From Eledone cirrhosa (lineage: Eukaryota): DNA of 64,000 nt. The stretch lies in the NCBI GenBank assembly GCA_964016885.1, contig OZ024740.1:88412001-88476000 (forward strand). The letters run 5' to 3'. Position 1 is the stretch's first letter. Each line of letters starts with the position of its first letter. A program made the translations under genes and the position numbers. The notes under the pieces are model-generated. The model was not told where the DNA came from, ran no database searches, and was given only the letters and a program-made list of their open reading frames with translations. Below are positions 6,806-61,362 of this stretch, piece after piece.

Positions 6806-9229
6806 ATGTATGTATATGTGCGCGCGCGCGTGTGTGAGTGAGAGAGAGTAAACGAGAGACAGTGTTTCTGTGTTTAAGCCTCCTCTTGAAACAATACTTA
6901 TACATCATATTTTGTTGGCTATATTTCTAATAATATTTATTAGGTTCTTGCCAATTGATAGTAATTTCAATTGAAGTCTGACAATTAGTTAAACATAAGT
7001 ATCAATAAATCACCAATTGGATTTTACATGAATGAGATTTCCCAGTAAATTTCTGTACCGGTGAATTTATAATTGCATAACGATGAAGAACTGAACTTAT
7101 ATGACGGAATACTGGAGTAGACAGCAATATTAAAGAATCCAGCTTACATAATGTATTTAGAGGTAATCTGTGTTTATTTCATTGCTGTTGTAATTATCCC
7201 TTAAGACGCTGTGTAAACTAATGATGACAAAGTAATACTTTATTGTTGTTCATTACGTTGAGAAACGTGTTGAAGTACTATTAGAAAGAAGACAGACAGT
7301 GGAAGGTGACGTGTGATTATATCGTTTCGGCGAATGAACTGCTGATCAGAATAACATCTTTAGATTCATAGAAGGAGAGAAAGTGAGTATATAGACAAAG
7401 AAAAGGAAGTTATGAAAAGCAGTTTGCCCGAAGCTGACGAACAAATGAAGAGCTTGGACAAATTGCAATTATTTGACAAGGGCCACAGAAGACAATAACG
7501 TTCTAAATATTCCCATTGGCTATTATTTAATGAACAGCTGAGTAAAACACTCTTAGAAACTTTCAGTATAGACATGGAGAGCTTATTGAGAAAATCTCAT
7601 ACCTTAGAGACAATCAACTGAATGTGAATACAGAGATAAAGCGTTAATAAGATGTAAGGTATAGTTAAAGAAATATGCACCAGAATGTCTGCTTACATAG
7701 TATTTTATGTATGAAAATTATTCAACCTGACCAGGAAGTGGGGAATAAGCAAACGGATATTGTCTCATCAAAACGCACCTTACGTTGGCAGTAAGAGTAA
7801 ATGTGGGAAAAGGAAATGAAAATAAGAATAATTAAGCGTGTTATCATTTTATGGTATTTTAAATTTTAAATGATTAAAGATTTGGCATGAAGCTTTGTAT
7901 TTCTTCTGTGTTGCTATATAAGTGAGAAAGGACTTTATCATCATTAGGTCAACAGCGTGCCAAAAGAAAGTTAGATACACAAGGAAAGCTGTCAAATCTT
8001 ACAAAATTTGTAAGGGAAAGTGCAGAGAATTTGAAAAGAAGGGTCACAAACTGATGGAGAAAACGAACACTAAGTGGACATCGTTGTAAAATACCTTTCC
8101 TCACAAAATTTATAGGTTTTATGTATATTTTGAAATGACTTTACGAATTTGTTAACAGAAGAACCGAAGAGACTGTTTACGTGGGATATATAAACACATT
8201 ATTTTAACGATGAAATAATGGCAATAATGGCATACGTGCAGTAACTACACTAAATGGTTGTAAATACACTAAATAATTAGATGAGGTGATTGTACGAATG
8301 ATGGGAAATTTTTACGCATCGATTATTTCCATTGAATAAAATATACACATAACATTGCACAGAAAGTGATATTTTAAAACAATAGTAGTGGGTGTGGTTA
8401 CGCGATGGATTAGTTGGGCTCACACACCAGCCGCTGGCTAAGTTGATTTTCTCTGTCATGTTTTTTGTTTTCACAGTGGCCACTGGTTCTCGGATCTTCT
8501 CCATATTCAGGTAACATATGTATGGCAATGAAAACGTACTATTAGATAAATACTGATGACATATAGTTGTGTCATGCTTGTAGGAGTCATCTTTTCCAAG
8601 TTTACGACATGGCTGTAAATTGGTTCAACCATGAAATGAACCTGCTAGGCTGGAGGGAGTCATATCGTACACTGTAGGCTTCAATTTTACTCTCATTATG
8701 CTAGAAACAACAGTAAAATATCCCTCAATTACAACTACGTAACTTATATCAACCAAGATACCTAGGTAATGCAATCCTATAAATAGTCAGTGGATGAAGG
8801 TAATTGGAATGCGTTTGATCAAACTTTTGTTCAATAAAGTTGTTTCAAAAGGCTAAACAACAACAAAAAGCCCCGCGGTGTCTGTAAGAACTATTTATTG
8901 GAATAAAAGAAGAATTCAAACATTGAAACATAATGCAAGATATCTAAGATTTCCAAAAACATAATTTTATCAGAGTTAGAGTGGAGATGTTGGCCCATAT
9001 CCTTTTAAAATCGTACACAAGACTGGGTGAAGCGGATTATTAAAGAAATGATTAAGGTTACCGAAAAGGGAGCTCGTAAATATTGAAGAAGTATTCTATT
9101 AAATGTGCATAATGCCATACCCATATATTGCTTTTACAGCACACAGTGCTACTGTTATTCTGAGATAGCTCTTGAAACTAGTGATTGTCCAGCACCCCCA
9201 AACTAGTCCTATGTTAAAGTTCATTACAG

Positions 9230-9328
9230 GTTGACTTTGCCTTCCATCCTTACGGGGTCGATAAAATAAAGTACCAGTAATGCACTGGGTAATTGCTGGC
9301 CTTGTGCCTAAAGTAGAAACAATTATTA
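9230..9328 (+). mobile_element. 5'-truncated MetaSINE-like SINE
   Basis: GACTTTGCCTTCCATCCTTACGGGGTCGATAAAATAAAGTACCAG core plus TGGCCTTGTGCC..GAAACAATTATT tail; same family as 31066, 43664, 50076 and 61199. Confidence 0.8.
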
Positions 9329-10176: not shown

Positions 10177-10438
10177 AACTACTACTGCTGCTACTACTAC
10201 AATTATTATTATTATTATTATTATTGACGAAAGTGGATGTACGTTTTTTGAAGCTCCGTGAGTAAGCAATTTTTGAGGATTAATTGTAGAGAATTGTTTA
10301 TTTTTTTGTACCGCTGAAGCATTATAAGACATTAATTTGTATCCTGTGAAGGAATAACTCATAATATTTGGGCCTTTTGGCCCAAATATTTGAACTTTAT
10401 TTTGAAAAAAAAAATAATAATTTTTTTCTCAAAAAAAC

Positions 10439-12349
10439 ATGGCGGAGCCACGCCCCCTAGAGGCGGGTCTGCTGTCGTGCAACGGCGACTTGAGCGTTGA
10501 GAGGAGAGGTGAGGCGAGGAGCGCCACCAGCACGAATGTGAGCAGCGACAGTGCCAGCACCAACGGGCCGAGCGGCGCGGAAGGTGGTAACAGCGACAAC
10601 ACCAACACCAACAAGCCGAACAGCGCAGAAGGTGGTAATAGCGAGAGCACCAACAAAACGAACAGCACAGAGAGTAATAGTAGCGACAGCAGCAGCACCA
10701 ACAAGGCCAACAGCACAGAAGGTAACCACGACACAGGGGAGAACAACAACAGCAATAGCAGCAGCAACACCAACAAGAACAACAACAGTGACAACACCAA
10801 CAAGAACACTTTCGCTGCTGTGGCAGCGGCTAAAAGGAGACCATGCTACAGCATCGACTTAACCAACAGAGAGGAAAAGTTGGCCCAGGCCTGGAAAATC
10901 ATAAATCAAGAGCAGACCTGGGCAAACTTAACTGTCCCGGCAGAAGCCATTGAGGCAGTGGAAAAAAGAACGGTGCATTTCAGATGCATCTCAGTAGAGA
11001 CAAAGAGGGCAGCGATAATCGCCCAAGCTGACATAGAAGCCGCACTGAAATACATCAGAGAGGACACAGACTTCATAGAGAGGGGCAGGCAATACGGCAC
11101 CGTTTCGGTGCTGTTCAAGTCTGAAGCCCTCGCTGTGAAGCATTCAATGACCCCTTGCAAAACCAGCAAGGTCATAATGTACCCCTCCCACATGGGAAAA
11201 CGAATAGCACGTGTGCGCATTCCCAGGATTCCACCAGGACTTGATATGTGGTGGCTCCTGGGTTGCGTAATCGTGGAAGGAACGGATACAGTCCCGGTAG
11301 AGGCAACGAGAACTGCCAGGGACGACTGGTCCGGGGTTGATCTGGAGATACTGCTCCAAATCAGACCCGAAAACGTAAAAACAATCCCGGACCACATCCG
11401 CCTCCAAAACGGGAGGGTGTTGCATATAATGACTGAGGGCAAAAGGCCGCATTGTTTCCTTTGTGGGGAAACGACACACTTGCGAGCCTTCTGCCCTCAA
11501 CTGCCGAAAAGCGCAAGGGGTCGAAAGATTCCACTGCTGGCGACGCCGGGACAAGGACCACCAGCAACACCGTCAACAATGGAACCACCAAAATTGCACA
11601 CCCAGGGGGGAAACGAGGAAAGCTCTCCCATTCCCCCTCCCCCCCAAAATACACACACGAACAAGAACATAAACACTCACTCAGACACAAACACGCTCAC
11701 AGCCACAGACCCCTCATCCTCCAGCAGTGAAGATGAGGGAAAACCAAAGTCCCCCAAAATACAAAAAACAAAACACAAAAAAAAAAGAAATCCACAAAGC
11801 ACAAACACCCCCACAAAAAAAAATACACACACCACCCACACAAACATTTTCCCCACAGCATCACCAACACAACCACCAAAATCCCCCAAACGCAAACAAG
11901 CTAAACAGACACAAGAACAAATAGACACACAAACATCAGAAACTACAGACACCCCACCCACAACAAACGCAGACACAATAGAAACAACACTAACAAAGCT
12001 ATCACCACCACAATCACACGAACAAATAAAACCCGAGCAACAAAACATTAAAAACTTCGTGCTTGCCAGAAGGGCCAACAAGGAATTGATGGCCCATGTA
12101 GCACGAAGCACAAACATCGAAAAAGACGGGGAAACATTTGAAGCGAGCACATTTCGCGTACCAGATAATTTGCTTCTGATGCGAATGTCGCTCGCTTCAT
12201 ACAAAGAAATTCGAAAGAGCTTTCCTCGGGATGTGGGAACCCCGAACGTAAAACCCACGTCAAGACTATTAAAGGGGTTCCCAAAAGAAACCCCACAAAC
12301 CATGGAGGTCGAACCACCCGACCTTCACAAGACCCCGGAAGGTAAGTAA
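10439..12349 (+). CDS. Tx1 ORF1 protein (636 aa), nucleic-acid binding, CCHC zinc knuckle
   Basis: Intact ORF with an N/S/T-rich repetitive N-terminus, an RRM-like middle, CFLCGETTHLRAFC (CX2CX4HX4C) and a P/T/K-rich linker. Confidence 0.88.
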   Translation: MAEPRPLEAGLLSCNGDLSVERRGEARSATSTNVSSDSASTNGPSGAEGGNSDNTNTNKPNSAEGGNSESTNKTNSTESNSSDSSSTNKANSTEGNHDTGENNNSNSSSNTNKNNNSDNTNKNTFAAVAAAKRRPCYSIDLTNREEKLAQAWKIINQEQTWANLTVPAEAIEAVEKRTVHFRCISVETKRAAIIAQADIEAALKYIREDTDFIERGRQYGTVSVLFKSEALAVKHSMTPCKTSKVIMYPSHMGKRIARVRIPRIPPGLDMWWLLGCVIVEGTDTVPVEATRTARDDWSGVDLEILLQIRPENVKTIPDHIRLQNGRVLHIMTEGKRPHCFLCGETTHLRAFCPQLPKSARGRKIPLLATPGQGPPATPSTMEPPKLHTQGGNEESSPIPPPPQNTHTNKNINTHSDTNTLTATDPSSSSSEDEGKPKSPKIQKTKHKKKRNPQSTNTPTKKNTHTTHTNIFPTASPTQPPKSPKRKQAKQTQEQIDTQTSETTDTPPTTNADTIETTLTKLSPPQSHEQIKPEQQNIKNFVLARRANKELMAHVARSTNIEKDGETFEASTFRVPDNLLLMRMSLASYKEIRKSFPRDVGTPNVKPTSRLLKGFPKETPQTMEVEPPDLHKTPEGK

Positions 12350-12378
12350 ACCTTTCCTCTCCCATTCATCCTGCCAGC

Positions 12379-15300
12379 ATGGCCATAAGAGTAGGAAGTT
12401 TAAATGTTCGTGGCCTGGGGTCGCCCTGGAAGCAAGGTCACTTGCTCAACGACCTCAGGTCACTAGGAATGGATGTAATTGCCATCAGCGAGACCAGAAT
12501 TTCCGACACACGCGCACTGGCGCCGATTTTCGACGATTATCAGATCTTTGCATCTGTTAGTCGGCCGGGAATGGGAGGTGGAGTGGCTGTGCTGTTTAGG
12601 AAATGTCTGGATCTCGAGGTAAGGTCAATCTTCCGGGATCCTGACGGAAAGTTGGTGGTCCTGGACGTGAGCAATAGCGAAGGTGGTGCCTTTAGACTGG
12701 TGGCCGTCTACGCCCCTACTGGGGCCGGTCGGCCGGACTTCTTTAGGCGCCTGGAAAACTTTCTGCTTACGTCTCGCCCTTTACTGTTAATAGGGGATTG
12801 GAATGGCATCTTAGAAGCACGCTGGGATTGTGTGGGAGTATCTGATAGGAGCGGGGGGTGCAAAAGCCTCAAGTACCTGATCAGCCAGTTTCAACTGTCT
12901 GACAGGTACCGACTAGATTTCCCTAATGCGCCAGTATGGACCTGGACCAATCGCATAGGGTCATCTAGATCGTACATAGATAGGATTTTCATTAGGAAAA
13001 GAGATAGAAATAGTGTAGGATGTCCACATTTTAAAACGGTTGCCTATTCAGATCACAAGCTTGTGATCTGTATGGTCGACCTAGATAAGACACGTAGGTT
13101 AGGACCTAGCTACTGGAAGCTAAACATGTCGTTTCCGGCACGTAAAGCTTACAGGGACCGGGTCAACAACTTAGTTAAGCAAAAGTTGACAGGGGGGGTT
13201 GTCAACAACAGGTGGTGGGGGGCACTCAAAAGAGAGATTAGAGCAACCTCGATAGGATTTAGCAAAGAAGTAGCAATAGAGAAAAATAGAAAGGAGGAGG
13301 GGCTGATAGCTAAGTTAGACGAGGCTATTTGTAGTGGCATTGCAACAGACGTGCTAGCGGCGAGAATGGCACTAGACCATTTCTTCAATGCGAAACACGA
13401 AGGTTGCATTGTCAGAGCTAAGGCGCGTGCTCTGAGGAACGAGGGAACCAAAGCTGCCCGATGGGCTCGCTTTGCAGAGACGCAGCGTGGAAATAAAACC
13501 ACAATTCGGTCTTTGACGGATCGAGATGGACACGAACTGAGCGATTCCAAGCAGATGTGTGAGGCCTTTCGCCAGCACTTTGCTCGATTGTTCGGGAGGA
13601 TGGGTGAGTCGGAGACGGCGGCGGACTTCAGTCCCTACCTCGACGGCTTGCCACGCCTCTCGACGGCCGACGCTGAGCGCTGCGAAGAGCCGATAACATC
13701 AGCCGAAATTCAGGACGCCCTTGTCGGCTGCTCGAGTCGCAAGTCACCCGGTTTGGATGGTCTGCCCTACGAGCTTTACGTAAATATGCCAGACTTGTTC
13801 TCCGATCTCCTCGAAGCGCTCTACTGCAACTGGCAGCAGAACGGGAGCATTCCCAGTTCTGTGAGCCGTGGCGTAGTGACGCTGATAAGGAAAGACGAGA
13901 ACAAGAGGGACACACTAGATAATTTCAGGCCCATAACCCTGCTCAACACAGAGTTTAAGATTTTGGCCAAGGTGTTAGCGAAAAGGTTGGCGCTTGTCGT
14001 CAAAGATTTGGTTGGGGAGGCGCAAACTTGCGCAATCCCGACCAGGTCCATACACGACAACCTCCACCTCATGCGATACATCATAGAGAGGGTTGGGTGC
14101 AAACCTGGCTTCGGTGGGGCTCTGATCAATTTAGATCAATCGAAAGCATTCGATAGGGTCGACCATCGGTACTTGGAGGCTGTCCTCGAGGCGGCTGGCT
14201 TCGGCCCCGTCTTCAGAAGCTGGATCGCTGCAATGTACAGCGGCATCCGCTCGGTGGTCAAAGTTAATGGCCACCTCTCGGAACCGTTTCAGATCTCTCG
14301 ATCGGTCCGTCAAGGGTGCCCTCTCTCCTCCCTTCTGTACGTATTGACTCTTGAGCCTCTACTGCGGAAGCTGGAGTTGTTGCAGGGCATCCCGCTCGAA
14401 CCGGGACGTAGAAAGGCTGCGTCCGCTTATGCGGACGACATCACCGTGATGGTGTCGGACACCTCGGAAATCGAGGTGATCCGCACCCATTTGGAGGAAT
14501 ATGAAAGGTTGACGGGAGCAAAACTTAACCCGGAAAAGTCGGTGGGCTTGCAGCTCGGCACCTGGAGAGGCAAGTCCATGCCGTCCAACAGCGTCGTTGG
14601 GCGCTGGACAGACGGACCGGTAAAGTTGCTCGGGGTTTGGTTCGGACCAGACCTCCAGGTGGATAAGAATTGGGACGAGGTGACGAGCAGGATAGCCAAC
14701 CTCACCCAGAAATGGGCTGAGAGAAAGCTATCACTGAAAGGGCGGGCGGAGGTGGCGAACGCGTACATCGCGTCCGTCATCTACTACCGCCTGACCGTCG
14801 TGCCTTGCCCCCGTCCACGCCTCGCCAATTTGGAACGGCTCCTTTTCAAATTTTTGTGGAGGGGACGGGTCCCGTTGGTGAGGCGGTCCATCTGCTGCCA
14901 GCACCCTCTTCGTGGAGGGCTGGGCATGCCGTGGCTAATGATGCGCAGACATGCGCTGAGGCTGCGACATCTCCAGATATTTTGCCTAAACGGTGAATAG
15001 GTGTGGTCGCCGTTTGTTAGACGGGCCTTTCCGCAGCTCATCTCTTTGACTGAGCTGCAGTCCTGGGTCAAGAAGAGACCGAGACTGGGCGACTGGCATC
15101 TGGAATGTTGCCAGGCGCTCACTGCACTCTGCAAGGTGGGCAATGCGGTCAGTGGAACTTCCACTCAAGATTTCTATAGAGGATTAGTGGAGGGCAAGTG
15201 CGATGACGTACTAGGAGAGGCTCTGGGCGTCAACGAAGTAGAACTGACCAGTATGTTCCGGAGGACTTTCGAGCCGGGGACGATGGATAACTTCCAGAAA

Positions 15301-15798
15301 TCCCTCGCTTGGCAGTGCTACCGGGGGGCGCTGCCGGTTCGGGATAAACTCTACAGGCACGGAAGTGCTGTCAGACGAACCTGCCCGAGATGCGCGCAGA
15401 GCGACGAAACCGTTCTGCACGCACTCGTCCAGTGTCCGTGCATTGCTGACTTGTGGGGTTATGTCGAACAGCTATTGTCGCGTGTAGAACGGATCCGGCT
15501 ATCGTCCGAGTCCATAGTGAAGATTGACCCGCCGCCTTCTTTTGGTCAGGAAGGGCAGGCAATTTTCCTCTGCCTGGTGGCAGTAGCGAAAGAGGTTGCA
15601 TGGTGGACCAGGTTGAAAGGACTGAAGACAGACACTTTTCTCTTCGGCCAATCCCTCATCAACTTCTTCAAGTTTCACTTGGAAAGGAAGGTGAGGGTGG
15701 AGAGAGAAGTGCTGCCCCCCAGTACATTTACTGAAAGGTGGGTGAATGTGGCGAGAATGGCCCGCGTGAGTGGGCCTACTCTGATCATGCGCCTGTAG
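12379..15798 (+). pseudogene. Tx1 ORF2 (APE endonuclease + RT + C-terminal zinc knuckle) with one in-frame TAG at 14998-15000
   Basis: EN motifs SLNVRGL, SET, VYAP, GDWN, IDR, SDH; RT motifs KSPGLDG, FRPITLLN, KAFDRV, RQGCPLS, YADD; C-terminal CPRC..ETVLH..C. The frame continues after the stop. Confidence 0.93.
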
Positions 15799-17225
15799 GC
15801 TGGTGAATTCGAGAAGGAGAGGGGTGCCCTTCCCGGGTGCCCTAGGAGCGTCGGGTGGCTCAGGACTGGTGGGGTGCTTGAGTCAACCCTGGGTGGTGAT
15901 CCCTCTTATTGGGGAACTTTCATTGTTGTATTTTTATTGTTATTTTGTTTTTGTTTTTTTGTTATTTATACTTACTCGATCTCTATGTAAACCCCCACTG
16001 TCCCTGTCTATTGTGTTGTCCCCTATATGTCGGCCCTTGTGGCCAATAAATGAAATCATTATTATTATTATTATTAATAATAATATTACTTTTATTGATA
16101 TTAATGCTACTCATGATTTCTAACCAGGCAGAACTTGCTTCTTAATCCTTTCATGGGTAAAATCTGCGAAAATGAAATTTACGAGGCAAGACAGTTCTTA
16201 GAGGCAAGCATTGTATATAATGTTCTATGGTAAAAAGCTTTCAGAAAATTGATCCGACCAACAATCTTCTGAATAAAATATTCTGTTGATTTCACATCGA
16301 CACTCTAGACATACCCTACCCTAACTAAGTTGATTGAATCAAGGAAAAAGAGAAAAAAATAATCAATGAACCACACAAGGACAAAGTTCAATTATTTTAT
16401 CAGTTTTAAGAAATGGTTCCAAGATTTATGCCCTAACTATCGATTTTTTCGGTCCAATAATGAATAAAGCTTAAAATACAGTTAGTGAACCTACACGAAG
16501 GGTTAATCTTATTTGAACTAAGAACCACGTAGTATGTTGGTTGGACGATGCTATAGTAAGTGAGCTAGGAATAACCCTTGTCCGTACGCAACGTACTAAA
16601 CTACTGCCTTTCTCTTTACAGTCTGTCAACAACTATTAAATATAATGTGTAGCCAAATCTTCAATAAGATAGGAATAGCTGTCATATTTATGCAATTCCA
16701 TCTTGCTATGGTATTACTAAATCAATAATTCGAACACGCTATCAGATATCGAAGAAGTAGATTAACCTTTGCTTTTCCATCTCCGTTTTATCATCAATGA
16801 AGATAAAGTTGCAGAAGTAATTATCCCACAAGTAATTTACAACTGAATTCCTGTTGCATAGTTAATTCATACAGAATTATGTATTTTTAATGCCAGTTCA
16901 ACCCAGTTTATGAATATACTTTAATTCATTCATTCCCCCCCCCCCCCAAAAAAAAAAGGATTGTTTAAAAGAAAGCTAAACCCTCCTCAAACAAACAGAT
17001 TGTTTAATATATTTTCAAAAATCATACATGGTAGATGTTTAGGAGTAAAAAAATAAAAAGGAGCTGACGAAAGGAAATCACGGCATAGTATTTCTTCATC
17101 TTCATCTTATCTTTCAATGCATACCTCATTTCCCTTTTCACACAATATCTTTATTATTCTGTATCAGATTATATTGGAATAATGCAGAATATCTTCGATT
17201 TGTATGAGATGATAATGAAAAACAC

Positions 17226-30149: not shown

Positions 30150-31980
30150 GTCAGGTCACCAGTTGGTGCTACTAGTAACATGTATCCCACTACAACCTGT
30201 CTCATGGTCGGGTCGTTGGCGACTAAACTGGCAACCCCACCAAGGTTTCTTGGTGAGGAGGGTGACTTTGGACATCCTGCAGGACTAAAAACAAAACCTG
30301 TCAAAGGACAAAGGAGCTCTTAAGAGTCAATGACCATCCAAAATCACCGAGAGAGATGATCCCTTAGCCTTTGTCAAGGCAGAATTCTAGGAGAAGGAAA
30401 ACTCTGATATAACACCTGCAACCCTGATGGTATCCAATGATGTTGACTTGTTCTTCTTTTTGGTAAATATCATCTTGGTTAAGAGAGTAGGACTGGCTTT
30501 GTGCAGTGCCTTTGCTCACTATAAAAGCTTCACGGCACAAGCATTGCTTTATATCTGGAGATCTCTCTGCACTTGTCGTCACATGGTACCATGGGCCCAG
30601 CACTATGTGTGAATAATTGTCACAAGTGTAGTGTTTGTACCAGAGCTTTCAAGTCGCTGGCTGGACTAAAAAGTCACACTCGTTCAGCGCATCGGTAGGG
30701 GTTCACCTACATGGATATAAAGTAGTGGTCGTACTCGAATACGAGTTGGCAGCCACCAAGTATGTATGTATGTATGTATGTATGTATGTATGTATGTATG
30801 TATGTATGTACCGTGCGGTTAAACCACTGGGAGTGAAGGACCCCTAGCCTTTGTCAGGGCATTCTTCTGGGAGAAGGCAACCAGGGAACTGGGATAACTC
30901 CGATACAAAACCTGCGGCTCTGTAGTAACCGATGATGTTGATCTTTTCTTCTTTTCAGGTTATAGCTACTGTCGCTCAGAGAGTGGGATTGGCTCAGTGC
31001 ACAGTCTTTCCTCACTTTAAAAAATATCTTCACGCACAGGCATTGCACGATAGAATTAATTAATTGCTTCTATTTTTGGCACAGGGCTAGCAATTAACAA
31101 GTACATTACTGGTACTTTATTTTATCGACACCGTAAGGATGAAAGGCAAAGTTAACATCGAAGGGATTTGAACTCAGATCATAAAGGGACGTAACTCTAT
31201 GCTTCAAAGCATGGTGTCCGACTCTCTACCGACACTGCCAATCCACCGCCCTTACGATAGAATTAATTAATTATTATTAATAATGGTATATCATGCAATA
31301 GCCATACTCGATAACGAGGGGGCAGCCATCATGTATGTATGCATGTATGTATGTATGTATGTATGTATGTATGTATGTATGTATGTATGTATGTATGTAT
31401 GTATGTATCACAGTACAACCTGTCTCATGGTCGGGTCGTTGGCGACTAAACTGGCAACCCCACGAAGGTTTCTTGGTGAGGAGGGTGACTTTGGACATCC
31501 TGCAGGACTAAAAACAAAACCTGTCAAAGGGCAAAGGAGCTCTTAAGAGTCAATGGCCATCCAAAATCACTGGGAGAGATGACCCCTTAGCCTTTGTCAA
31601 GGCAGAATTCTAGGAGAAGGAAAACTCTGATATAACACCTGCAACCCTGATGGTATCCAATGATGTTGACTTGTTCTTCTTTTTGGTAAATATCATCTTG
31701 GTTAAGAGAGTGGGACTGGCTTTGTGCAGTGCCTTTGCTCACTATAAAAGCTTCACGGCACAGGCATTGCTTTATATCTGGAGATCTCTCTGCACTTGTC
31801 GTCACATGGTACCATGGGCCCAGCACTATGTGTCAATAATTGTTACAGGTGTAGTGTTTGTACCAGAGTTTTCAAGTTGCTGGCTGGACTAAAAAGTCAC
31901 ACTCGTTCAGTGCATCGGTAGGGGTTCTCCTACATGGATATAAAGTAGTGGCCGTACTCGAAAACGAGTTGGCAGCCACC
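30150..31980 (+). mobile_element. Three tandem bipartite non-autonomous RTE derivatives (30150-30759, 30811-31331, ~31409-31980) separated by (TATG)n
   Basis: RTE-5'UTR-like CTAGGAGAAGGAAAACTCTGA body fused to an RTE C-terminal finger HKCSVCTRAFKSLAGLKSHTRSAH* (30621-30698) and the tail TACTCG..ACGAG.TGGCAGCCAC(TATG)n. Copies 1 and 3 are nearly identical. Confidence 0.75.
31066..31253 (-). mobile_element. Full-length tRNA-derived MetaSINE-like SINE with 19-bp TSD
   Basis: A box TGGCAGTGTCGG, B box GAGTTCAAATCC and GCCTTTCATCC..GTCGATAAAATAAAGTACCAG core. TSD ACGATAGAATTAATTAATT at 31047-31065 and 31254-31272. Confidence 0.9.
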
Positions 31981-34644: not shown

Positions 34645-36913
34645 GCTTTCTTTATTAACCACAAGGGTCTACATAAAGTAGACATTAAGGACAGTACAGG
34701 ACAATACAGGGCTGTACAAATGGGCATTTCTGCGTGTAAAAAACAAGAAACAGAGGATGTAATAATAGAACAATGAAAAAATTCCCCAATAGAGGGGAGA
34801 CTTCCGAGGGACATTCGTGGCGAAAGCCCATTAAAAAGCCACAGTGACTCTGAACACCAGGGCAAGTGCCATCTCCCAGCTTTCCACCTTTAATTTACAG
34901 ACAAATACTCAGAGTAGGCCCATTCACTCTGGCCATTGTTGCCTTTCTCACCCATATTTCAACAAAATGCTGGGAAGAGAGCACTTCCCTTTCTACCCTG
35001 ATTTTCCTTTTTTAATGAAAATTGAAAAAGTTAATCAGGGCATCACCGAAGAGGTAAGTGCTCGTCTTCAGCCCTTTCAACCGTGTCCACCATACTATCT
35101 CTTTCGCCATGGCCACCAGACAGATAAAAACTGCCTACACTTCCCGGCTAAAGGAAGAGGGCGGGGCAATCCTCACGATGGGCTCGGCTGATAGCTGGAT
35201 CCGTCCTACACGCGACAGCAGGTGTTCGACATAAACCCACAAGTCAGCAATGCTCGGGCACTGGGCGAGTGCGTGCAGGACGGTTTCGTCGCCCTGTGCG
35301 CAACTCGGACATGCCCGGCTGACGGCACCTCCATGCCTGTAGAGTTTATCCCGAAATGGCAAAGCTCCTCGGTAGCACTGCCAGGCCAGGGATTTCTGGA
35401 AGTTGTCCATAGGCCCCGGCCCGAAAGTTCTTCCGAAGAGATTGGCTAGTTGATTTTCGTCGACGCCTAGAGGTTCCCCATGTACGTCGACGCTCTTCCC
35501 CTCCACTAATCCTCAATAGAACGCCAAGGTGGAGTTTCCACCGATCACATTGCCCGATTGGTCGAGGGCTGTGAGCGCCTGAAGACATTCCAGTCTCCAA
35601 GCGCTCTCTCTCGGTCTTCGCTTGACCCGGGACTGCAGCTCCGTCAAGGAGACGAGCTGGGCAAAGCCGCGTCTAGCAAACGGAGACCACAGCTGATCAG
35701 CGTCGTGGAAGAGGTGGAGAAGTCGTAGCCTGAGCGCGTGTCTGCGCATCGTCAGCCACGGCATTCCCAGCCTTCCACGTAGCGGGTGTTGACAGCAAAT
35801 GGACCGCCTGAACATCGGTGTGCGTTCCTTCCACAAAAAGCGAAAGAGCAAACGCTCCAGCGCAGTCAGGCGGGGCTTAGGACAAGGTACGACGGTCAGG
35901 CGGTAGTAGATGACGGACGCGATGTACGCGTTAGCCACCTCCGCTTCACCTTTCAGGGATAGCTTCCTCTCCGCCCATTTCTGGGTGAGAGAAGCCAACC
36001 TGCTCGTCACCTCGTCCCAGTTTTTGTCCGTCTGGAGATCCGGACCGAACCAGACACCGAGCAATTTAACTGGTCCGTCCAGCGCTCGACGACACTGTTG
36101 GACGGCATGGACCTGCCTCTCCAAGTGCCGAGCTGCAGGCCCACTGACTTTTCCTGGTTGATCATTGCTCCTGTCACCGCTTCGTATTCTCTTAGTGTAG
36201 TGCCGATCGCCTCGATGAGTTTGGCTTTCGACACCACTACAGTGACATCTTCCGCATATGCTGAAATGGATCTTTCGCATCCTAGTTCGCGCCGGACCCC
36301 CTCAACGTCTCCAGTTTGTGCAGTAATGTCTCGAGAGTCAATACGTACAAGAGGGACGAGATGGGACATCCTTGGTGGACCGAGCACATGATGTTGAACG
36401 GTTCCGAAAGATGACGGTTCACTCTCACCACAGAGCAGAAGTCGCTGTGCATGGCAGTGATCTAGCCTCTGAAGACGGGCCCAAAGCCAGCCGCCCTCAG
36501 GACTGCCGCTAGGTAACGATGGTCGACCCTATCGAAAGCTTTCGACTGATCTAAATTGATCAAGGACCCACCCGTGCTAGGTTCCCTAGCTACCCTCTCT
36601 ACGATGTATTGCATGAGGTGGAGGTTGTCGTGGATGGATCTGTCGGGAATGGAGCATGTCTGCGCCTCTCCCACTAGACCACCAACGTCAAGCGCCAACC
36701 TCTTTGCTAGCACCTTGGCCAAAATCTTGAACTCTGTGTTTAGCAGAGTTATGGGCCTAAAATTATCTATGTTATCCCCCTTGTTCGGATCCTTTCTCAG
36801 CAGCGCCACAGCTCTTCGGCTCATAGAACTGGGAATTCTCCCGTTCTGTTGCCAGTTGCAGTAGACGTCCGCCAAGAGGGCTCACGATAATACGATTTCC
36901 TACATAGGTCGCC
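34645..36913 (-). mobile_element. Tx1 family 2, internally deleted copy retaining the exact 5' end
   Basis: RT and C-terminal fragments plus 3' UTR; 36879-36913 matches the first ~35 nt of the 55410 copy; (AAT)n on both sides. Confidence 0.92.
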
Positions 36914-36963: not shown

Positions 36964-38900
36964 ATATCCCCCGTTGTCAGGAGGTTTTTGTCATTCAGCA
37001 TGAAGACATGGAAAACGACACTCCTTTTGAATAGTGAAACAAAATCACTGGAAGCTGGAGAAGTTAATATTAATTGTTGAATTTTTCAGGGTGACTCTTT
37101 ATCACCGCTTTTATTCTGCATCGCATTTATACAATTAAATAAAATGCTCAATGAAACAAAACATGGATATAAAGTCTATGACAAAACCATTAATCACTTG
37201 TTCTACATGGATGACCTGAAACTATTTGCAAAAAATGATGAACAATTGCAAGGGCTATTATCCATTGTGGAGCAGTTCAGTGATGACATTAAAATGGAGT
37301 TTGGACTAGATAAATGCGCCAAAGCAACGTTCACCAGAGGAAAGCTGCTGAAGAGTTCAGACATTAATCTTGATCGGGGGAACGTGATAAGAGAACTTGA
37401 TCAAGAAAAAACTTACAAATATCTAGGTGTTTTTGAAGGAGACGGAATCAAGCACTCGACAATGAGGGAAAGGATAAGGAAGGAATGTTACCGCAGAGTA
37501 AGAGCAATCTTAAGAACGGAATTGAATGCAAGGAATAGGATCGATGCCATAAACACGCTTGCCATACCAGTAGTAACCTACAGTTACAATGTCATCAACT
37601 GGTCAAGCACAGAGATCCGTAGGCTCGATACAAAAATTCGAAAATTCTTAACCATGCACAGAATGCATCACTCTAAGGCAGATATAGATAGAATATATCT
37701 CCCTAGGAAAGAAGGAGGACGTGGGTTAATCCAGTTAGACATTGCGTTGAAAACGGCAACAATTGGATTATCTACATATCTAAGGGAATCACATAATTGG
37801 ATGATCAAACTCGTTTTGAAACACGAAAGCATCAAAAGATCATATTCCATTACAAAAGATGCACAAAGATACAGTAATGGACTACAAATTTCAGAAGTCC
37901 CATTTACTGCTGAAATGGAAAACACAGAAAAAGCAAAGCAGGTAAAAGTAACTGCAAAGAAAGAACTGCTACAGAAACTGGCTACGAAATGGCAAGAAAA
38001 GCCTCTGTATGGAAAATACCCAGAGCGAGCTAACAATCCTGATGTTGACAAAACTTTAACCCATCAGTGGTTGGCATCCTCTGGACTGAAATCGGAGACT
38101 GAAGGACTGATTATATCAGCACAAGATCTGTGTCTGCCAACAAAAAATTACCAAGCCAACATAATAAAAAAATGGATGCAGCTCATTATGCCGTGTATGC
38201 AAAAAACAACCAGAGACCATTGACCATATAATTTCAATGTGCAGTCCTATAGCTCCAACCGAATACCTAAACAGGCATGACAGAGCTGCACAATACATAC
38301 ATTGGATAATGTGTAAGCATTTTGACCTGCCCCATCAAAAGAATTGGTGGGAGCATCAACCACCTCCCATACTTGAAAAAGATCACATCTCAATCTTGTG
38401 GAACTTTAGCATCTAAACAGACCGAAAAATAGATGCAAATAGACCTGATATAATATTGAAGGACTTTAAAAAGAGGGTATGCCTGCTAATTGATATGTCT
38501 GTTCCAATAGACAAGAATGTATCTATAAAAACATTTGAAAAATTGAGCAAGTATAAGGACCTAGAGATAGAAATTGGAAAAATCTGGAAATTGAGAACTG
38601 AAACAATACCAGCCGTTGTAGGCGCTCTGGGAATGATACCTAAGGGGTCTAATGATTACTTATCGCAAATCACAGGAAACCCGCGTATAGGAGAAATACA
38701 AAAGATAGTACTAATGGGAACTGCTCATATACTAAGGAAGATTCTGTCAATATAAGTACATCACAAGTCTAAACACTAAAGATGCATGTGTGAGTATGTA
38801 TGTTCTTCCTTGAACATGGCGGACCTTGTTGTCTCTTGAGGTCACTGGTTGTGACTTAGTTAATAACTCGTATGAACATAAAGCAAGATAAATGCAACTG
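36961..38900 (+). mobile_element. Dong/R4 family A, 5'-truncated
   Basis: QGDSLSP, FYMDDLK, RIYLPRKEGGRG and RLE tail; near-identical to 46050-47985; (AAT)n flanks. Confidence 0.93.
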
Positions 38901-38917
38901 TAATAATAATAATAATA

Positions 38918-39211
38918 AACTAAAACAATACCAGTGGTTGTAGGCGCTCTAGGAATGATACCTAAGGGGTCTAATGATTATTTATCGCAAATCCCAGTAT
39001 AGGAGAAATACGAAAGATAGTACTAATGGGAACTGCCCATATACTAAGGAAGATTCTGTCAATATAAGTACATCACAAGTCTAAACATCTAAACATGCAT
39101 GTGTGAGTATGTATGTTCTTTCTTGAACATGGCGGAACTTGTTGTCTCTTGAGGTCACTGGTTGTGACTTGGTGATAACTCGTATGAACATAAAGCAAGA
39201 TAAATGCAGCT

Positions 39212-39212
<1 letters not shown>
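38918..39212 (+). mobile_element. Dong/R4 family A, short 3' fragment
   Basis: Repeats the last ~300 bp of family A between (AAT)n tracts. Confidence 0.9.
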
Positions 39213-39263
<51 letters not shown>

Positions 39264-39264
<1 letters not shown>

Positions 39265-39585
39265 CACGAGAGTGCAAGAGAAGGAGAGGGAGAAAATTAA
39301 CCGATACCAGGACCTAAAGTGGGAGGTGAAAAGGATTTGGAACTGCCATGAAGTCAAAGTGATTCCGATTGTCATAGGCGCACTGGGGACTATCTCCAAA
39401 GGTTTCCAGGGATGGTTAAAGAAAATCGGCCCCTTCACGCTTTTTGGAACGCTTCAAAAGGCATGCTTGCTTGGAACGGCAAGAACCCTCCGATACGTCC
39501 TGAATATCTGAGGCTGCAGGTAGTGGCTTGATATTCAATCCAACGGACTTTCCAGTTAACCAACATCAATGACTGAGATTCAAGG
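39264..39585 (+). mobile_element. Dong/R4 family B, short 3' fragment
   Basis: Near-identical to the 3' end of 50465-54325. Confidence 0.9.
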
Positions 39586-39623
39586 AATAACAATAACAAT
39601 AATAATAATAATAATAATAATAA

Positions 39624-40684
39624 TACAACATGTTCCACAAGAGGAGTGATGTCGATAGACTCTACCTAAGGAGATCTGAGGGTGGAAGAGGTCTTATCAG
39701 CATAGAGGACTGTGTTCAGATGGAGAAAAACAACCTATACAAATACGTGACCTATAGTAAGGAGCCAATGCTCAGAACTGTACTGAAGGAGGGGACAGTA
39801 GACCAGGGGATGCCCAAGGAGGAAATAACATCAAGGAGGAAGAGCAGCCTTAAGGGAAAATCCCTTCATAGTACCTTCTTTGAGAAAACTGAATTTAGAG
39901 ATCCACAGACATGGAACTGGTTGAGAAGAGGAGACCTCAAAAAGGCTACAGAAGGAATGTTAATGGCTGCGCAGGAGCAGGCCCTCAAAACGAAGTGGTT
40001 GAAGCACCATATTTACAGGGAGGAGGCTAGCCCACTGTGCAGGATCTGTGGAGAGAGAGAGGAGACTGTGGCTCACATTGTGTCCGAGTGTAAACACCTA
40101 GCCCAGACCCACTATAAGGGCTGGAGACACGATGTGATGGGCAGGGTGATCCACTGGCACCTGTGCAAAGTAAACAATTTACCACATTCTGAGAAATGGT
40201 ATGAACATAGGCCAGAGGCGGTGATGGAGAACAATCAGGTGACGGTGCTGTGGGATTTTAGGATACGGACGGACAAAAAACTGGAACACAATAGACCTGA
40301 CCTGGTGGTTGTGGACAAAGAAAAAAGATCGTGTCTGATTGTGGATGTGGCCTGCCCTTTCGACACGAGAGTGCAAGAGAAGGAGAGGGAGCAAATTAAC
40401 CGATACCAGGTCCTAAAGTGGGAGGTGAAAAGGATTTGGAACTGCCATGAAGTCAAAGTGATCCCGATTGTCATAGGCGCACTGGGGACTATCTCCAAAA
40501 GTTTCCAAGGATGGTTAAAGAAAATCGGCCCCTTCACGCTTTTTGGAACGCTTCAAAAGGCATGCTTGCTGGGAACAGCAAGAACCCTCCGATACGTCCT
40601 GAATATCTGAGGCTGCAGGTAGTGGCTTGATATTCATTCCAACGGACTTTCCAGTTAACCAACATCAATGACTGAGATTCAAGG
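39624..40684 (+). mobile_element. Dong/R4 family B, 5'-truncated (zinc knuckle + RLE)
   Basis: ORF 39630-40610 is almost identical to the C-terminal 326 aa of the 1130-aa ORF. Confidence 0.93.
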
Positions 40685-40693
40685 AATAACAAC

Positions 40694-40762
<69 letters not shown>

Positions 40763-40847: not shown

Positions 40848-43600
40848 ATATGGACTGTCTTCTAGAGAAACAATAGATTCAACAAAAGAATCTCTGAAAC
40901 AAAAAGTCCAAGTAAAAGCCCAACGAATTCGTAGATTCGAGAAGCGAAACAACTCCTACAGGCAAAATAAGTTGTTCTTATCCAGTGCCAAGTCATTTTA
41001 TAGAGAAGTAGGTAAGAAAACTTCTGGAGTAAGATTTGGTGTGATGAAAAGACATATAATAGTAATGTAGATTGGATTAGTCGCCTGGAAATATTCTACA
41101 CAATTTAGAACAGGCGTGGGAAGACATCTCTATAGCGGACTTAAGGACAGCGCTCAATAAATCTCATTAATGGAAATCTCCTGGTAGAGACAGGGTGCCA
41201 AATTTCTGGCTTTCTTCACTCCCGTGCACTCACAATATATTAGTCAATCTGTTTAATGGAATATGAAAGATCCAAAAAATACACTTGATTGGACAGCAAG
41301 TGACATTACCTACCTTCTACCAAAGAACAACGAAACCAAAGATCCACAAAACTATCGGCCCATAACATGCTTGTCCACCACTTATAAACTATTAACCTCT
41401 ATTCTCATGGAAAAAGCATACGTGTTTTTGGAGGAGAACAATCTTTTTCCCATTGAACAAAAAGAGTGCCGACGAGATTCATATGGTTGCAAAGATCAAC
41501 TTTTGATTAATCGTATGATCCTTGAGAACTGTCATAATAAATACAGAAATCTCAGTTCTGCATGGATCGATGATAAAAAAGCCTTTGACAACATACCACA
41601 CTCATGGATTCTGAAATCACTGGACATCTTCAAAATCTCACCTGCGATCTCAAATTTCCTGAAGCACAATATGTCATTATGGAACACAATTCTCCAATTG
41701 TCTCATTCCACTGGGGTACTGTGCTCTAGGAATATAAACATCAACTGTGGTATATTCCAGGGTGACTCACTTTCACCCATGCTTTTCTGAATAGCTTTAA
41801 TACCCCTTACACCCGAGCTTAATAGAACAGGGTACGGTTATAGAATTGACAACCAAAGAATAAGCCACCTATTTTATATGGATGATTTGAAGCTATATTA
41901 CAAAGATAATGACGAACTGGAAGGCCTTTTCGGACAGTGAAAACGTTTAGCGATGAGATCAGGATGCAGTTTGGACTTGACAAGTGTGCAAAAGCCACTT
42001 TCAAGAAGGGGAAGCTTGTCAACTCAGACTCAGTTGAATTGGATGCTGAAACAATCATAAAGGAACTTGAGCAGGAACAAACCTATAAATACTTAGGGAT
42101 TAATGAAGGCTCTGGCATACAGCATGCAAGTATAAAAGAGAGGATAAGGAAAGAATGTTACAGGAGAGTACGTGCAGTTCTGAGAACAGAACTAAACGCT
42201 CGTTACAAGGTGCTAGCCATAAATTCCTTGGCAGTCCCAGTTGTCACTTATAGCTTCGGTGTGTTGAACTGGAATATGAGTGAAATCAAAAGAATCGACA
42301 CCAAAATCCGTAAGCTACTGACCTGTAATAGGATGCATCACCCAAAAGCAGATGTGGATCGCCTTTACCTTCCTAGAACTCAGGGAGGCCGTGGCCTGAT
42401 CCAATTTGAACTTGCTTACAAGACCACCATCATTGGACTTGAATCAACTAACGACTGTATGCTGGAACTTGTTGAAAAGCATGAGAGAAGTTAGAAGCTT
42501 CATTCTATCTTGAAGGAGAGCAAAAAATATGCTGCTGTTCTCCTGCTTGATACCCAGGCTGGACAGACTAAAGAAACTGTTGCAACTGATGCTGCTAGGC
42601 ACATAAAATCACTGGCAAAAGCAAAAGGGCAGGTACAATTGGCATCAAATTGGGAGCAGAAACCACTGCATGGCAAATATGTGGTCCGTAGCAAACAAGC
42701 TGATGTTGACCAAAAGCTCACTCATCAGTGGCTACGTAGTTCAGAGCTGAAGGCGGAGAGTGCAGGCTTCATCTTAGCTGCCCAAGATCAAAGCTTATTG
42801 ACTCGTAATTACCAGGCCAATGTGATGAGAAATGGAATAAACCAAATGTGCCGATTCTGCAATGCTGGGTTGAAACAGTGGATCACTTAGTCTCTGGATG
42901 TAAAGTTTTAGCACCAGTAGAATACAAATATAAACATAACAGAGTTGGCCAATATCTACACTGGGTAATATGTCGGCATTACAAAATCAAAGCTGAAGAC
43001 AAGTGGTACAACCATCACCCTGAGGCTGTAACAGAAGGAGAAAAAGTAACAATTCTCTCGGACTTTCCTGAAGATACTGACAGGACCATAAAAGCAAATA
43101 GACCTGAAATCATTATAAAAGATCAACATAACAAGGTCTGTTTGTTGATAGATATGAGCATCCCATGTGATCACAATATCGTGGCAAAAGAATTTGACAA
43201 GCTACGAAAATATAAAGATCTGCTTATTGAAATTGAGAAAATGTGGCACCTCAAGGCCGTTACAATACCAGTGATTGTGGGATGAATCGGAATGATCAAG
43301 AAAGGAACAGAACAATATTTGCGAATGATTCCTGGTTTACCCTCTCTGCAAAAAATTGTTTTGACTGGTACTGCGCACGTATTGAGAAGAGCACTATCTC
43401 TTTAAGATTGATATCCCTCCTTGTATTTACACAAGCATATGCACATGTGTATATATGTATATGTTTTTTTTTTGTTTTTTTTTTATTATAATCAATGTGC
43501 TGTATTAATTGACTTACCAATGCAGAGTGTGAATGTATTTGCCGTAGGTGTCAGGAAGACACTCGGCATATATCTCAGAAACAATAATGAAAGAAAATAA
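40848..43600 (+). mobile_element. Dong/R4 family C, truncated and frameshifted
   Basis: YRPITCL, QGDSLSP, YMDD, RLYLPRTQGGRG, CRFC, IDMSIP pieces; AAT tail. Confidence 0.9.
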
Positions 43601-43663: not shown

Positions 43664-43775
43664 TGAGTTCAAATCCCGCCGAGGTAAACTTTGCCTTTCA
43701 TCCTTACGGGGTCGATAAAATAAAGTACCAGTAATGCAGTGGATAATTGCTGGCCTTGTGCCAAAGTATAAACAA
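43664..43775 (+). mobile_element. 5'-truncated MetaSINE-like SINE
   Basis: B box GAGTTCAAATCC, core, TGGCCTTGTGCCA hairpin and (ATT)n tail. Confidence 0.85.
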
Positions 43776-43808
43776 TTATTATTATTATTATCATTATTAT
43801 TATTATTG

Positions 43809-45984
43809 TTCTTTGAGTCTCAGTCATTGATGTTATTTAACTGGAAAGTTTGTTGAAATGAATATCAAGCCACTACCTGCAGCCTTAGATATTCAGGACG
43901 TATCGGAGGGTTCTTGCTGTTCCCAGCAAGCATGCCTTTGGAAGTGTTCCAAAAAGCGGGGCGGGACAAATTTTCTTTAACCATCCTTGGAAACTCTTTG
44001 AGAGAGTACCTAGTGCGCCTATGACAATCGGGACCACTTTGACTTCATGGCAGTTCCAAATCCTTTTTACCTCCCACTATAAGTCCTGGTATCGGTTAAT
44101 TTTCTCCCTCTCCTTCTCTTGCACTCTTGTGTCGAATGGGCAGGCTACATCCACAATCAGGCACAATCTTTTTTCCTTGTCCAAAACCACCAGGTCAGGT
44201 CTATTGTGTTCCAGTTTCTTGTCCGTCTGTATCCTAAAATCCCACAGCACCGTCACCTGATCGTTTTCTATCACCGACTCTGGTTTATGCTCATACCACT
44301 TCTCAGAATGTGGTAAATTGTTTACTTTGCATAGGTGCCAGTAGATCACCCTGCCCATCACATCATGTCTCCAGCCTTTATAGTGAGTCTGGGCTAGGTG
44401 TTTACGCTCGATTACAATGTGATCCACAGTCTCCTCTCTCTCTCAACAGATCCTACACAGGCTAGCCTCCTCCTTGTAAATATGGTGTTTCACCCACTTC
44501 GTTCTGAGGGCCTGCTCTTGCGCAGCCATTAACATTCCTTCTGTAGCCATTTTAAGGTCTCCTCTTTTTAACCAGTTCCATGTCTGTGGATCTCTAAATT
44601 CAGTTTTCTCAAAGAAGGTACTATGAAGGGATTTTTCATGAAGGTTGCTCTTTCTCCTTGTTGTTATTTCCTCCTTGGACATCCTCTGGTCTATTGTCCT
44701 CTCCTTCAGTACAAGTCTGAGCATTGGCTCCCTACTATCAGTCACGTATTTGTGAAGGTTGTTTTCCTCCATCTTAACACAGTCCTCTATGCTGATAAGC
44801 CCTCTTCCACCTTCAGATCTCCTTAAGTAAAGTCTATCGACATCACTCCTCTTGTGGAACATGTTGTAGATAGTCAATAGCTTCCCAGTCTTCCTATCCA
44901 TTTATTTTTGTTCAGCAACATTCCATCTCAGAATTCCCGCACTGTACCTAATAATAGACACAGCTCGGGAATTTACTGCACTTATGGCATTCCTACTGTT
45001 CAGATGTGACTTCAATACGCTCCTTACTCTCCGAATGTATACAGATCTTATCAATTCGTTCATTTGTTTGTTCTTTATGCCATCAGCCTCCAGAACACCT
45101 AAATATTTGTATCCTTTCTTCAGTGTCAATTTCCTTTATCATCTCACCTGTTGGTACCTGGATTCCGTTACTTCTGCTCAATTTACCCCTCTTCATCACA
45201 AGGACTCCACACTTAGTAATACCAAATTGCATACATATATCATTGCTGACAGTGTCAACAAGCACATCCAACTCCTTCTCACCCTTCCCGAAGAGCTTAA
45301 GATCGTCCATGAAGAAGAGGTGATTGATGGTAAGCTTTCCCTTTCCCAACTTGTAACCTACTCTCACTTTTCGCAGTATAATGGTAAGGGGCATCAGAGC
45401 AAGGACAAATAGCAGAGGGGACAAACTATCTCCCTGGAAGATACCTCTCTTGATCTTCACGCCTCCCAAGGATTCTCCAGCTGATGTTAACTCTGTTTTC
45501 CAGGACTTTATACTTTTGCTCAACAACTGTCTGATGTTATCTGCCACCTTGAAGATCTCTAGGCTTTTGGTGATCCAAGAATGAGGCACCATGTCAAATG
45601 CCTTTTTGTAGTCTATCCATCCCATGACAAGACCAGTGTGTCTCCTCTTGCAATTCCTCATTACCATCTTATCAATAAGTAACTGGTCCTTTGTACCACG
45701 GGACTTCTTTCGGCATCCTTTCTGTTCGTCCGGTAACAAGTTGTTTGTGTGGAGGTGATAGTAGATTTCTTCAGACACAATGCTTGCCAACAGTTTCCAC
45801 ATTACGGACAGACATGTGATAGGTCTATAGTTGGTAACATCATCACCCTTGATTCGGTCTTTCATTACCAGAACTGTGGTACATTTTGTCAAACACTCTG
45901 GTACCTCACTTGACATCAAGCAGTCATTGAACATAGTTGTCAGTTTCGGGTGGAGGGATGTTATATTTTTAATCCAATACCCCC
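43809..45984 (-). mobile_element. Dong/R4 family B sibling, 5'-truncated and frameshifted
   Basis: RT and RLE fragments similar to, but diverged from, the 1130-aa ORF; (ATT)n flanks. Confidence 0.92.
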
Positions 45985-46049
<65 letters not shown>

Positions 46050-46050
<1 letters not shown>

Positions 46051-50075: not shown

Positions 50076-50133
50076 AATTATTAATAATTGTCTCCACTCC
50101 AGGCACAAGGCCAGCAGTCACCCAGTGCATTAC
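50076..50133 (-). mobile_element. SINE 3' tail fragment
   Basis: Minus strand GTAATGCACTGGGTGACTGCTGGCCTTGTGCCTGGAGTGGAGACAATTATT matches 9277-9328. Confidence 0.75.
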
Positions 50134-50464
50134 AATAATATAATATACTTTTTGCTGAAGTTGCCTGTTATTGTTGTTGGCTATGTTGGTGGTGGTGCTG
50201 GGGCTTTTTATATTGTTGGTGAGGAAGGGGGGAGCCAGCAGTGCCATAGTTGTTGACGTTTGGCCGGTAGCCAGATCACTAAGTCAATCTATTTATATCT
50301 TTTGCTAGCCTCTCCCTTGTCTAGTGATACCGCCACCTTCCCCTTTCTTAAGTCAACAGGGGACTAGTGGTGGTAGCAATGAAGGAGTGGTGGCGGCGGT
50401 GATGGGATAGTGGTAGCAATGATGCATGGAGTTTATTATTATTATTATTATTGTTATTGTTATT

Positions 50465-55363: not shown

Positions 55364-55364
<1 letters not shown>
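54403..55364 (+). mobile_element. Tx1 family 2, 5'-truncated
   Basis: ORF2 C-terminus plus 3' UTR between (ATT)n tracts. Confidence 0.92.
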
Positions 55365-61168: not shown

Positions 61169-61198
61169 TTATTATTATTATTACTATTATTATTATTA

Positions 61199-61362
61199 AG
61201 GGCGGTGGATTGGCAGTATCGGTATAGCTCCGGCACCTTGGTTTGTGGTAGAGAGTCACGGCTCTTTAAGTTCTGAGTTCAAATTCCGCCGAGGCTGTAA
61301 TGCTCTGGAGTCGATTTAATCGACTTTCCATTCCACTTCAAATTGCTGGCCTCGTGCAGCTA
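61199..61362 (+). mobile_element. tRNA-derived SINE lacking the central core
   Basis: GGCGGTGGATTGGCAGTATCGG head, GAGTTCAAATTCC B box, AATTGCTGGCCTCGTGC tail; sits directly after (ATT)n. Confidence 0.8.

Follow-up and report, generated by a model that had tools for sequence, protein, structure and literature searches.

The window analysed here, a stretch of 64,000 nucleotides from the 3.0 Gb genome of Eledone cirrhosa, is a cluster of retroelements nested within ATT/AAT arrays. It contains one full-length L1-group element, four copies of a further family of Tx1-like LINEs (family 2), several Dong/R4-like elements and five copies of a SINE. The Dong/R4-like elements (36964–40724, 41257–43285, 43775–48500, and 50433–53964) are in the opposite orientation to the Tx1-like elements. 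At least three Dong/R4-like families occupy the same ATT/AAT arrays in this reversed orientation, with (TAA)n at the end and with RT, CCHC, and restriction-like nuclease motifs, and the element at 50542–53964 (−) is an open frame of 1141 aa. The labels CR1, RTE, and Dong are based on Pfam hits and, in part, on motifs which we take to be diagnostic of these clades. RTE-like elements with a PHD finger directly behind the RT domain were also seen (loci L116, L122, L150, L161, L162, and L181).

The full-length element, family 1, is a LINE located at 10226–16057 (+) in an (ATT)n array, with ATT arrays on both sides. Its ORF1 (10421–12349, +; stop-to-stop frame) has a CCHC zinc knuckle visible in the translation and no Pfam match. 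ORF2 (12346–15798, +) possesses APE endonuclease (PF03372), reverse transcriptase (PF00078), and zf-RVT (PF13966) domains, and is interrupted in the window copy by a single in-frame stop (14998–15000). The best match of ORF2 among solved structures was human L1 ORF2p (E 1e-57), with R2 at 2e-22, and Argonauta hians supplied the one protein relative of the LINE that carries a name. With an APE endonuclease, a reverse transcriptase and L1 ORF2p as its nearest relative, family 1 is an L1 group non-LTR retrotransposon. The label Tx1 is presumed from the affinity to the L1 group, the specific target and the knuckle in ORF1. Membership of the Tx1 group is suggested by the L1 affinity and the targeting, in a comparison and tree without named Tx1 references, and the elements are accordingly referred to as Tx1-like.

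The target of family 1 is sequence-specific, all 20 of the full-length copies at the top of the genome match list being flanked by ATT arrays. All 144 scored genome matches were identical across the last 265 aa, most of them within an open frame of 1150 aa, which points to a very young family and a recent burst. In places, for example at C10:44.68–44.71 Mb and C4:311.43–311.45 Mb, up to six near-identical copies of 5.84 kb follow one another head to tail, every insertion recreating the target, and neighbouring tandem copies lie 15–21 bp apart in nine of ten junction rows.

The SINE copies of the window are mostly incomplete. Two are 5′ truncated, at 9228–9321 (+; hairpin 9297–9309 with a 3 bp stem, loop 9301) and, between ATT-type tracts, at 43664–43774 (+; hairpin 43751–43763, loop 43755). 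A third (50089–50133, −; loop 50109) is strongly truncated and retains the tail part only, and a fourth (61198–61361, +), located in the ATT tract that follows a family 2 tail, is internally deleted with a degenerate hairpin. The original prediction had put the copies at 43664, 50133, and 61199 behind ATT-type sequence in Tx1 polarity. The fifth copy (31065–31253, −), missed in that prediction, is full-length with one loop change and is flanked by an 18 bp target-site duplication (31254–31271 and 31047–31064); a paralogous site without the insertion, in which the duplicated bases occur once, confirms this duplication (L189:5053). The fifth copy sits inside another dispersed repeat (31047–31400, −).

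The family to which the five copies belong has the properties of a SINE, being short (~190 nt, 225 in a long form) and non-coding, with 5′ truncations, target-site duplications and a high copy number (~200,000 tails). A/B box-like motifs were found in its head by eye only, and ARAGORN and Rfam gave no match. A Meta domain was considered for the SINE core and set aside, as by eye it is unlike the bivalve Meta sequences in the part of the PMC4824008 supplement available to us. SINE copies were also observed stacked head-to-tail with one duplication between them, like Tx1 copies (L123, L179, and L185). An older second repeat combines the central domain of the SINE with a different 3′ part (L137, L155, L162, L181, and L186), possibly a tail swap to another partner.

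The 3′ terminal module of the LINEs and the SINE

Family 1 ends in a predicted hairpin (16032–16044, +) with a 4 bp stem (16032–35 and 16041–44) and a 5 nt loop (16036–40), whose predicted pair probabilities are 0.90–1.0 in contexts of 32–109 nt. An A-rich spacer (16045–16057, +), consisting of an AATAAA hexamer followed by GAAA and two bases, closes the element with the same layout in 10 Tx1 ends, and is followed by the (ATT)n target array and duplication (16058–16075, +). Family 2 tails are present at 55340–55364 (+; loop 55344) in a 5′ truncated element (54403–55364) and at 61080–61104 (+; loop 61084) in the element at 55410–61104. Two more, at 62160–62184 (−; loop 62180) and 34645–34669 (−; loop 34665), had been absent from the earlier list. 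The motif itself was found everywhere it had been predicted, that is, in family 1, in family 2 (55340 and 61080) and in the SINE (9297, 43751, and 50100 on the minus strand).

Further Tx1-like families were found by following ORF2 ends at other loci. Several of these target ATT and four target ATCT-type repeats, the latter forming one clade (support 97/100). This ATCT-type sister clade with the same tail module represents a target switch inside one lineage (L056, L057, L062, L072, L142, L187, L188, and L190). Common to all families is a module of a 3–4 bp stem, a 5 nt loop, AATAAA, GAAA, two bases and the target, with two ATCT families deviating in loop bases; in most Tx1 tails fold prediction adds a lower stem beneath the hairpin. 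The similarity between family 1, family 2 and the SINE stated in the original prediction, namely the same CTTGT loop at a similar distance from the tail, was borne out, the loop-to-ATT distance being 17 nt in family 1, 16 nt in family 2 and 15–16 nt in the SINE, with a profile match above chance (see below). The AATAAA hexamer of the Tx1 tail is missing from the SINE. Pattern searches of the whole genome gave 21,736 Tx1 tails and 214,015 SINE tails, with no match in reversed controls.

The comparison of the SINE tail with LINE 3′ ends used a profile made from 35 SINE tails only and a sample of 80 stretches of 10 kb from arbitrary places in the genome; the 35 training tails were selected by a pattern that holds the shared positions, which inflates the scores. 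With this profile, 10 of 10 Tx1 ends scored 8.6–22.9 bits, with the best score at offset 0, the last base of the element. Family 2 (8.6) and family 1 (9.5) were the weakest, and family 3 (16.9) and one ATCT family (22.9) the best. All eight other ends that could be located (two CR1-like, two RTE-like, three Dong-like, and one Penelope; two more RTE ends, whose position could not be established, are not included) scored −5.0 to −10.7 bits, and the best score in their last 100 nt was 5.5. The Tx1 ends therefore match the SINE tail and the sampled CR1-like, RTE-like, Dong-like, and Penelope ends do not, with a gap of ~14 bits, in a panel of eight rival families drawn from 0.8 Mb, outside which rare or extinct LINEs may fall. 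Among 398,400 positions of reversed sequence, 57 reached 8 bits and none 16, so that the score level of the Tx1 ends is attained by at most ~1e-4 of reversed positions. In a blind scan of 800 kb and the window, Tx1 ends were among the top non-SINE matches.

The SINE and the Tx1-like LINEs thus share a 3′ terminal sequence in register, as expected of a stringent SINE-LINE pair, and it is short (~25 nt); none of the sampled Tx1 tails matches the SINE beyond this length. A LINE with a tail identical to that of the SINE was not found among 224 SINE-type tails, 214 of which follow a SINE body, while the remaining 10 resemble truncated SINEs on visual inspection. Genome-wide, 572 tails had non-SINE upstream bases, and all 30 of those inspected were SINE derivatives. 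Near a SINE 5′ flank (L007) lies a degenerate tail whose left arm is SINE-like and whose right arm is Tx1-like, with no coding sequence evident upstream.

The hairpin is less well defined in the SINE. Its stem of 3–4 bp has three firm pairs and a fourth that is broken in ~4/10 tails (present in about 55%), and the lower stem predicted for most Tx1 tails is lacking. The hairpin alone is predicted at −3.0 to −4.4 kcal/mol, its pair probability ranges from 0.0 to 0.9 by context, and in several longer contexts competing folds beat it. Across 10 representative rows and four pairs, 92.5% of cells were paired, compared with 15–55% when the positions were slid. The covariation score of 0.55 was reached by none of 500 shuffles and by none of the slid controls, a result that is not a probability since the rows are related and the shuffle control ignores relatedness. 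Compensatory stem changes, as originally predicted, were therefore seen among the Tx1 families; between SINE and Tx1 they amount to just one pair (C-G to G-C), the fourth SINE pair often being broken, and the remaining covariation lies among the Tx1 families. The proposed covariation analysis in this way favours the stem among the Tx1 families, with a single compensatory pair for the SINE.

Insertion signature, target choice and persistence

In the SINE, the target-site duplication starts with the first base after the module and a tail proper is almost lacking; the ATT previously read as the tail of the SINE is mostly the start of this duplication. Duplications of at least 10 bp (median 13) were found in 16 of 40 near-full copies, compared with 2.7 such copies (maximum 7) for shuffled pairs, and a wider search, conducted without a control, gave 42 duplications with a median of 15.5, mostly of 11–20. 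In one case (L249) an insert of ~24 nt, comprising the hairpin and tail alone, has an 18 bp duplication. The majority of SINE tails (92 of 106) continue ATTA, and at the SINE targets ATTAT(T) gives way to ordinary sequence.

With respect to long arrays, 16,086 of 186,720 SINE tails (8.6%) abut (ATT)4. This exceeds background by a factor of at least nine, given that 0.98% of ATT sites have as many as three units, and is far below the 22 of 27 found for Tx1-ATT tails, the other five being older copies with just 2–3 ATT units. SINE and Tx1 insertions agree in their ATT start, polarity and length, again as expected of a stringent pair, with the SINE far less tied to long arrays. Only seven SINE tails are in ATCT register, compared with 186,720 in ATT, and since the ATCT families share the loop, the hairpin alone cannot select the partner.

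Divergence of SINE copies from their majority sequence was 5.4% at the median (quartiles 1.8–8.9%, 73 copies). This resembles families 2, 1b, and ATCT-a, whose copies are 89–97% alike, and is unlike the recent burst of family 1. Because most SINE copies are older than this burst and the family 1 tail is among the poorest matches, the family represented at 16032 is probably not the main driver of the SINE.

In contigs of three runs from three other organisms, the ORF2 end and the final 35 bases of the Tx1 stretch (including 9 ATT bases) are covered, and most of the Tx1 3′ UTR between them is uncovered; three contigs link the ORF2 end to the Tx1 tail with unlike sequence between. In the same runs the SINE core and tail were covered, with no frequent variant listed in the tail, and the head was uncovered. 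Coverage reached 80% or more for both tails in these three runs, and a fourth run had neither. Both tails have thus been kept while their neighbours changed, as would be expected of a functional end. The motif was missing in distant L1-group relatives from metagenome contigs (21–47% identity), with none found in the 19 examined among 80 loci (best score 8.7 bits, far from an evident end), and is thus restricted to a lineage.

Mobilisation of the SINE

The SINE and the Tx1-like LINEs have in common the module at the exact 3′ end and strand polarity, and the SINE has 11–20 bp duplications starting from ATT and 5′ truncations down to the module alone. The exact-end tail match, the signature of the duplications, the polarity of the target and the rejection of the sampled CR1-, RTE-, and Dong-like rivals make it likely that the ATT-targeting branch of Tx1-like LINEs mobilises the SINE. 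The fuller reading, in which one 25-base module closes both the SINE and the microsatellite-targeting Tx1-like LINEs, with the SINE being copied in trans by an ORF2 protein of the ATT branch through a putative hairpin mechanism, is in our view probable. That the hairpin is truly required and strictly recognised is only slightly favoured. The original prediction of a stringent L1-clade element mobilising the SINE can therefore be retained as to a Tx1-like mobiliser, on the evidence of tail match, duplications and polarity; the stringency is a matter of interpretation, which the ATCT sisters, the looser targeting and the weak hairpin make less firm.

Target-primed reverse transcription by L1-type enzymes is established. 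In the present case, ORF2p would bind the small CUUGU-loop hairpin ~16 nt before the priming point and the APE endonuclease would nick the strand opposite ATTAT. The read-through AUUAU end of the RNA could then pair with the freed DNA end and prime reverse transcription, and a second nick 11–20 nt on would give rise to the target-site duplication. In this scheme the hairpin would admit an RNA to the lineage as a whole, and the choice of the sister enzyme able to complete the reaction would depend on RNA-DNA pairing. An ancestral LINE of this group is the likely source of the SINE tail. Such a mechanism would explain the fixed spacing, the lack of poly(A), the ATT start of duplications and the exclusion from ATCT sites. 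The more general proposal of a two-key system in an animal L1-group lineage, in which ORF2p binds one minimal pentaloop hairpin common to all sister families and to the SINE with its ~200,000 copies, and microsatellite-end pairing chooses the target-specific enzyme, is put forward tentatively, at slightly less than even odds.

The same observations may be read with a more relaxed enzyme in mind. Tx1-ATT enzymes could move the SINE merely through pairing of its AUU-containing 3′ end with the nick, the module being a relic or being kept in the LINE for 3′ end processing (AATAAA) and not for binding by ORF2p. It would fit with this that the ATCT families have the same loop and almost no SINE insertions at their target, that the SINE fold is weak and context-dependent, and that the crocodilian SINEU has been assigned to Tx1 without a shared tail, according to the text available of PMC4494074. 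However, the SINE has lost AATAAA and retained the loop, stem, spacing and GAAA, its spacer variants differ in sequence while nearly all are 7 nt long, the module outlasts adjacent sequence across organisms, and the stems covary among Tx1 families, so that relaxed recognition is considered unlikely.

A partner that is extinct or was not sampled, most simply an older Tx1 relative with a looser ATTAT target, would account for SINE targets of ATTAT(T) followed by ordinary sequence, for a match to sampled Tx1 tails of no more than ~25 nt and for the five of 27 older Tx1 copies with 2–3 ATT units. Against this, no other family with such a tail was seen at ATT/ATTAT junctions in 1.3 Mb, the inspected tails with non-SINE upstream sequence (30 of the 572) were SINE derivatives, and a SINE with weaker targeting than its Tx1 partner has a precedent in the 13–23% described for SINEU-1 and -2 in the source as available; we regard such a partner as improbable. 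It is still less probable, to a degree that makes it hardly credible, that the short tails are alike by chance and that CR1-, RTE-, or Dong-like elements in ATT/AAT arrays move the SINE. The match is indeed just ~25 nt and one CR1-like family does end in (ATT)n on the same strand, but the CR1-, RTE-, and Dong-like ends score below zero, the CR1-like ATT family makes no comparable duplication and the Dong-like elements face the opposite way.

Tail sharing with a SINE is much rarer for L1-clade LINEs than for other LINEs, with three cases among more than 800 families, all of them plant or algal, in the part of PMC3747384 available to us, and only maize and Chlamydomonas pairs in the surveys of 2012–2013 as far as accessible (PMC3472496, PMC3747384). 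The maize/sorghum LINE1-1_ZM with ZmSINE2/3 and the Chlamydomonas L1-1_CR with SINEX-3_CR resemble the present pair in having an L1-clade LINE, a tRNA-type SINE (here putative) and a common 3′ end (PMC3472496, PMC3747384). From the same partial texts, these pairs also have a conserved loop with a variable, compensating stem, seen here chiefly among the Tx1 families, their stringency likewise being deduced from sequence. They share ~50–80 nt and are plant or algal, whereas the pair described here shares ~25 nt and is from an animal, with a target-specific APE element and no poly(A).

In crocodilians, SINEU and Tx1-Mar are similar to the present pair in that the Tx1 partner is assigned by a shared target and the preference of the SINE is weaker than that of the LINE, and differ in the snRNA heads and poly(A) tails of SINEU, which has no tail similarity to any LINE and has a Mariner element as its target (PMC4494074, in the portion available). 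In the accessible literature, this sole animal SINE-Tx1 link is based on the target only (PMC4494074). Kibi (TC)n, Koshi (TTC)n, and crocodilian (TTCC)n/(TTTC)n families are, as here, Tx1-type LINEs specific for microsatellites, whose sister families use different repeats; the available portion of that source mentions no SINE partner or tail hairpin for them, and the targets here are (ATT)n and (ATCT)n (PMC4494074). Zebrafish ZfL2-1 and ZfL2-2 provide the model for recognition of a general stem and a specific loop by ORF2p (PMC4176376, available in part). They belong to the L2 clade and their recognition was shown by assay, while the elements described here are of the L1 group, are known from sequence and have one loop across families with different targets.

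The partners named in the mollusc SINE papers, in the parts available, are CR1, L2, Nimb, or RTE, where any are given, and a Tx1 pair is not among them (PMC4758252, PMC4824008, PMC11481361, PMC5804259, PMC5786205), and the accessible part of the Octopus vulgaris repeat annotation likewise gives no SINE-Tx1 pair (PMC13282606). No report of a cephalopod SINE-Tx1 pair was found in the literature searched; repeat databases may contain the SINE. If the two-key reading is correct, no earlier tail-sharing SINE-Tx1 pair would be known from animals, and the system could serve as a living model of the stringent form from which the poly(A)-recognising L1 of mammals descends. An animal case with intact, near-identical LINE copies would make the proposed stringent-to-relaxed history of L1 testable, and the natural pair of ATT and ATCT branches could separate RNA recognition from target priming. 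A likely engine is also named for one of the commonest repeats of the genome.

The other LINEs of the sample were each considered as partner and rejected. The CR1-like (ATT)n family has a profile score below zero, and none of 24 copies with the 5′ end in view has such a duplication (29 of 30 loci oriented). A second CR1-like family has similar-looking GC hairpins 25–45 nt from its end, but its terminal repeat differs and its target is (AT)n, and the RTE-like, Dong-like, and Penelope ends gave no profile match. A very young CR1-like family was also encountered (L166:8724–9875 and L271–L285), in which 148 of 150 scored matches share the highest score and many frames of 1045 aa are open. It precedes (AT)n in 15 of the 15 loci read and is possibly a microsatellite-specific CR1.
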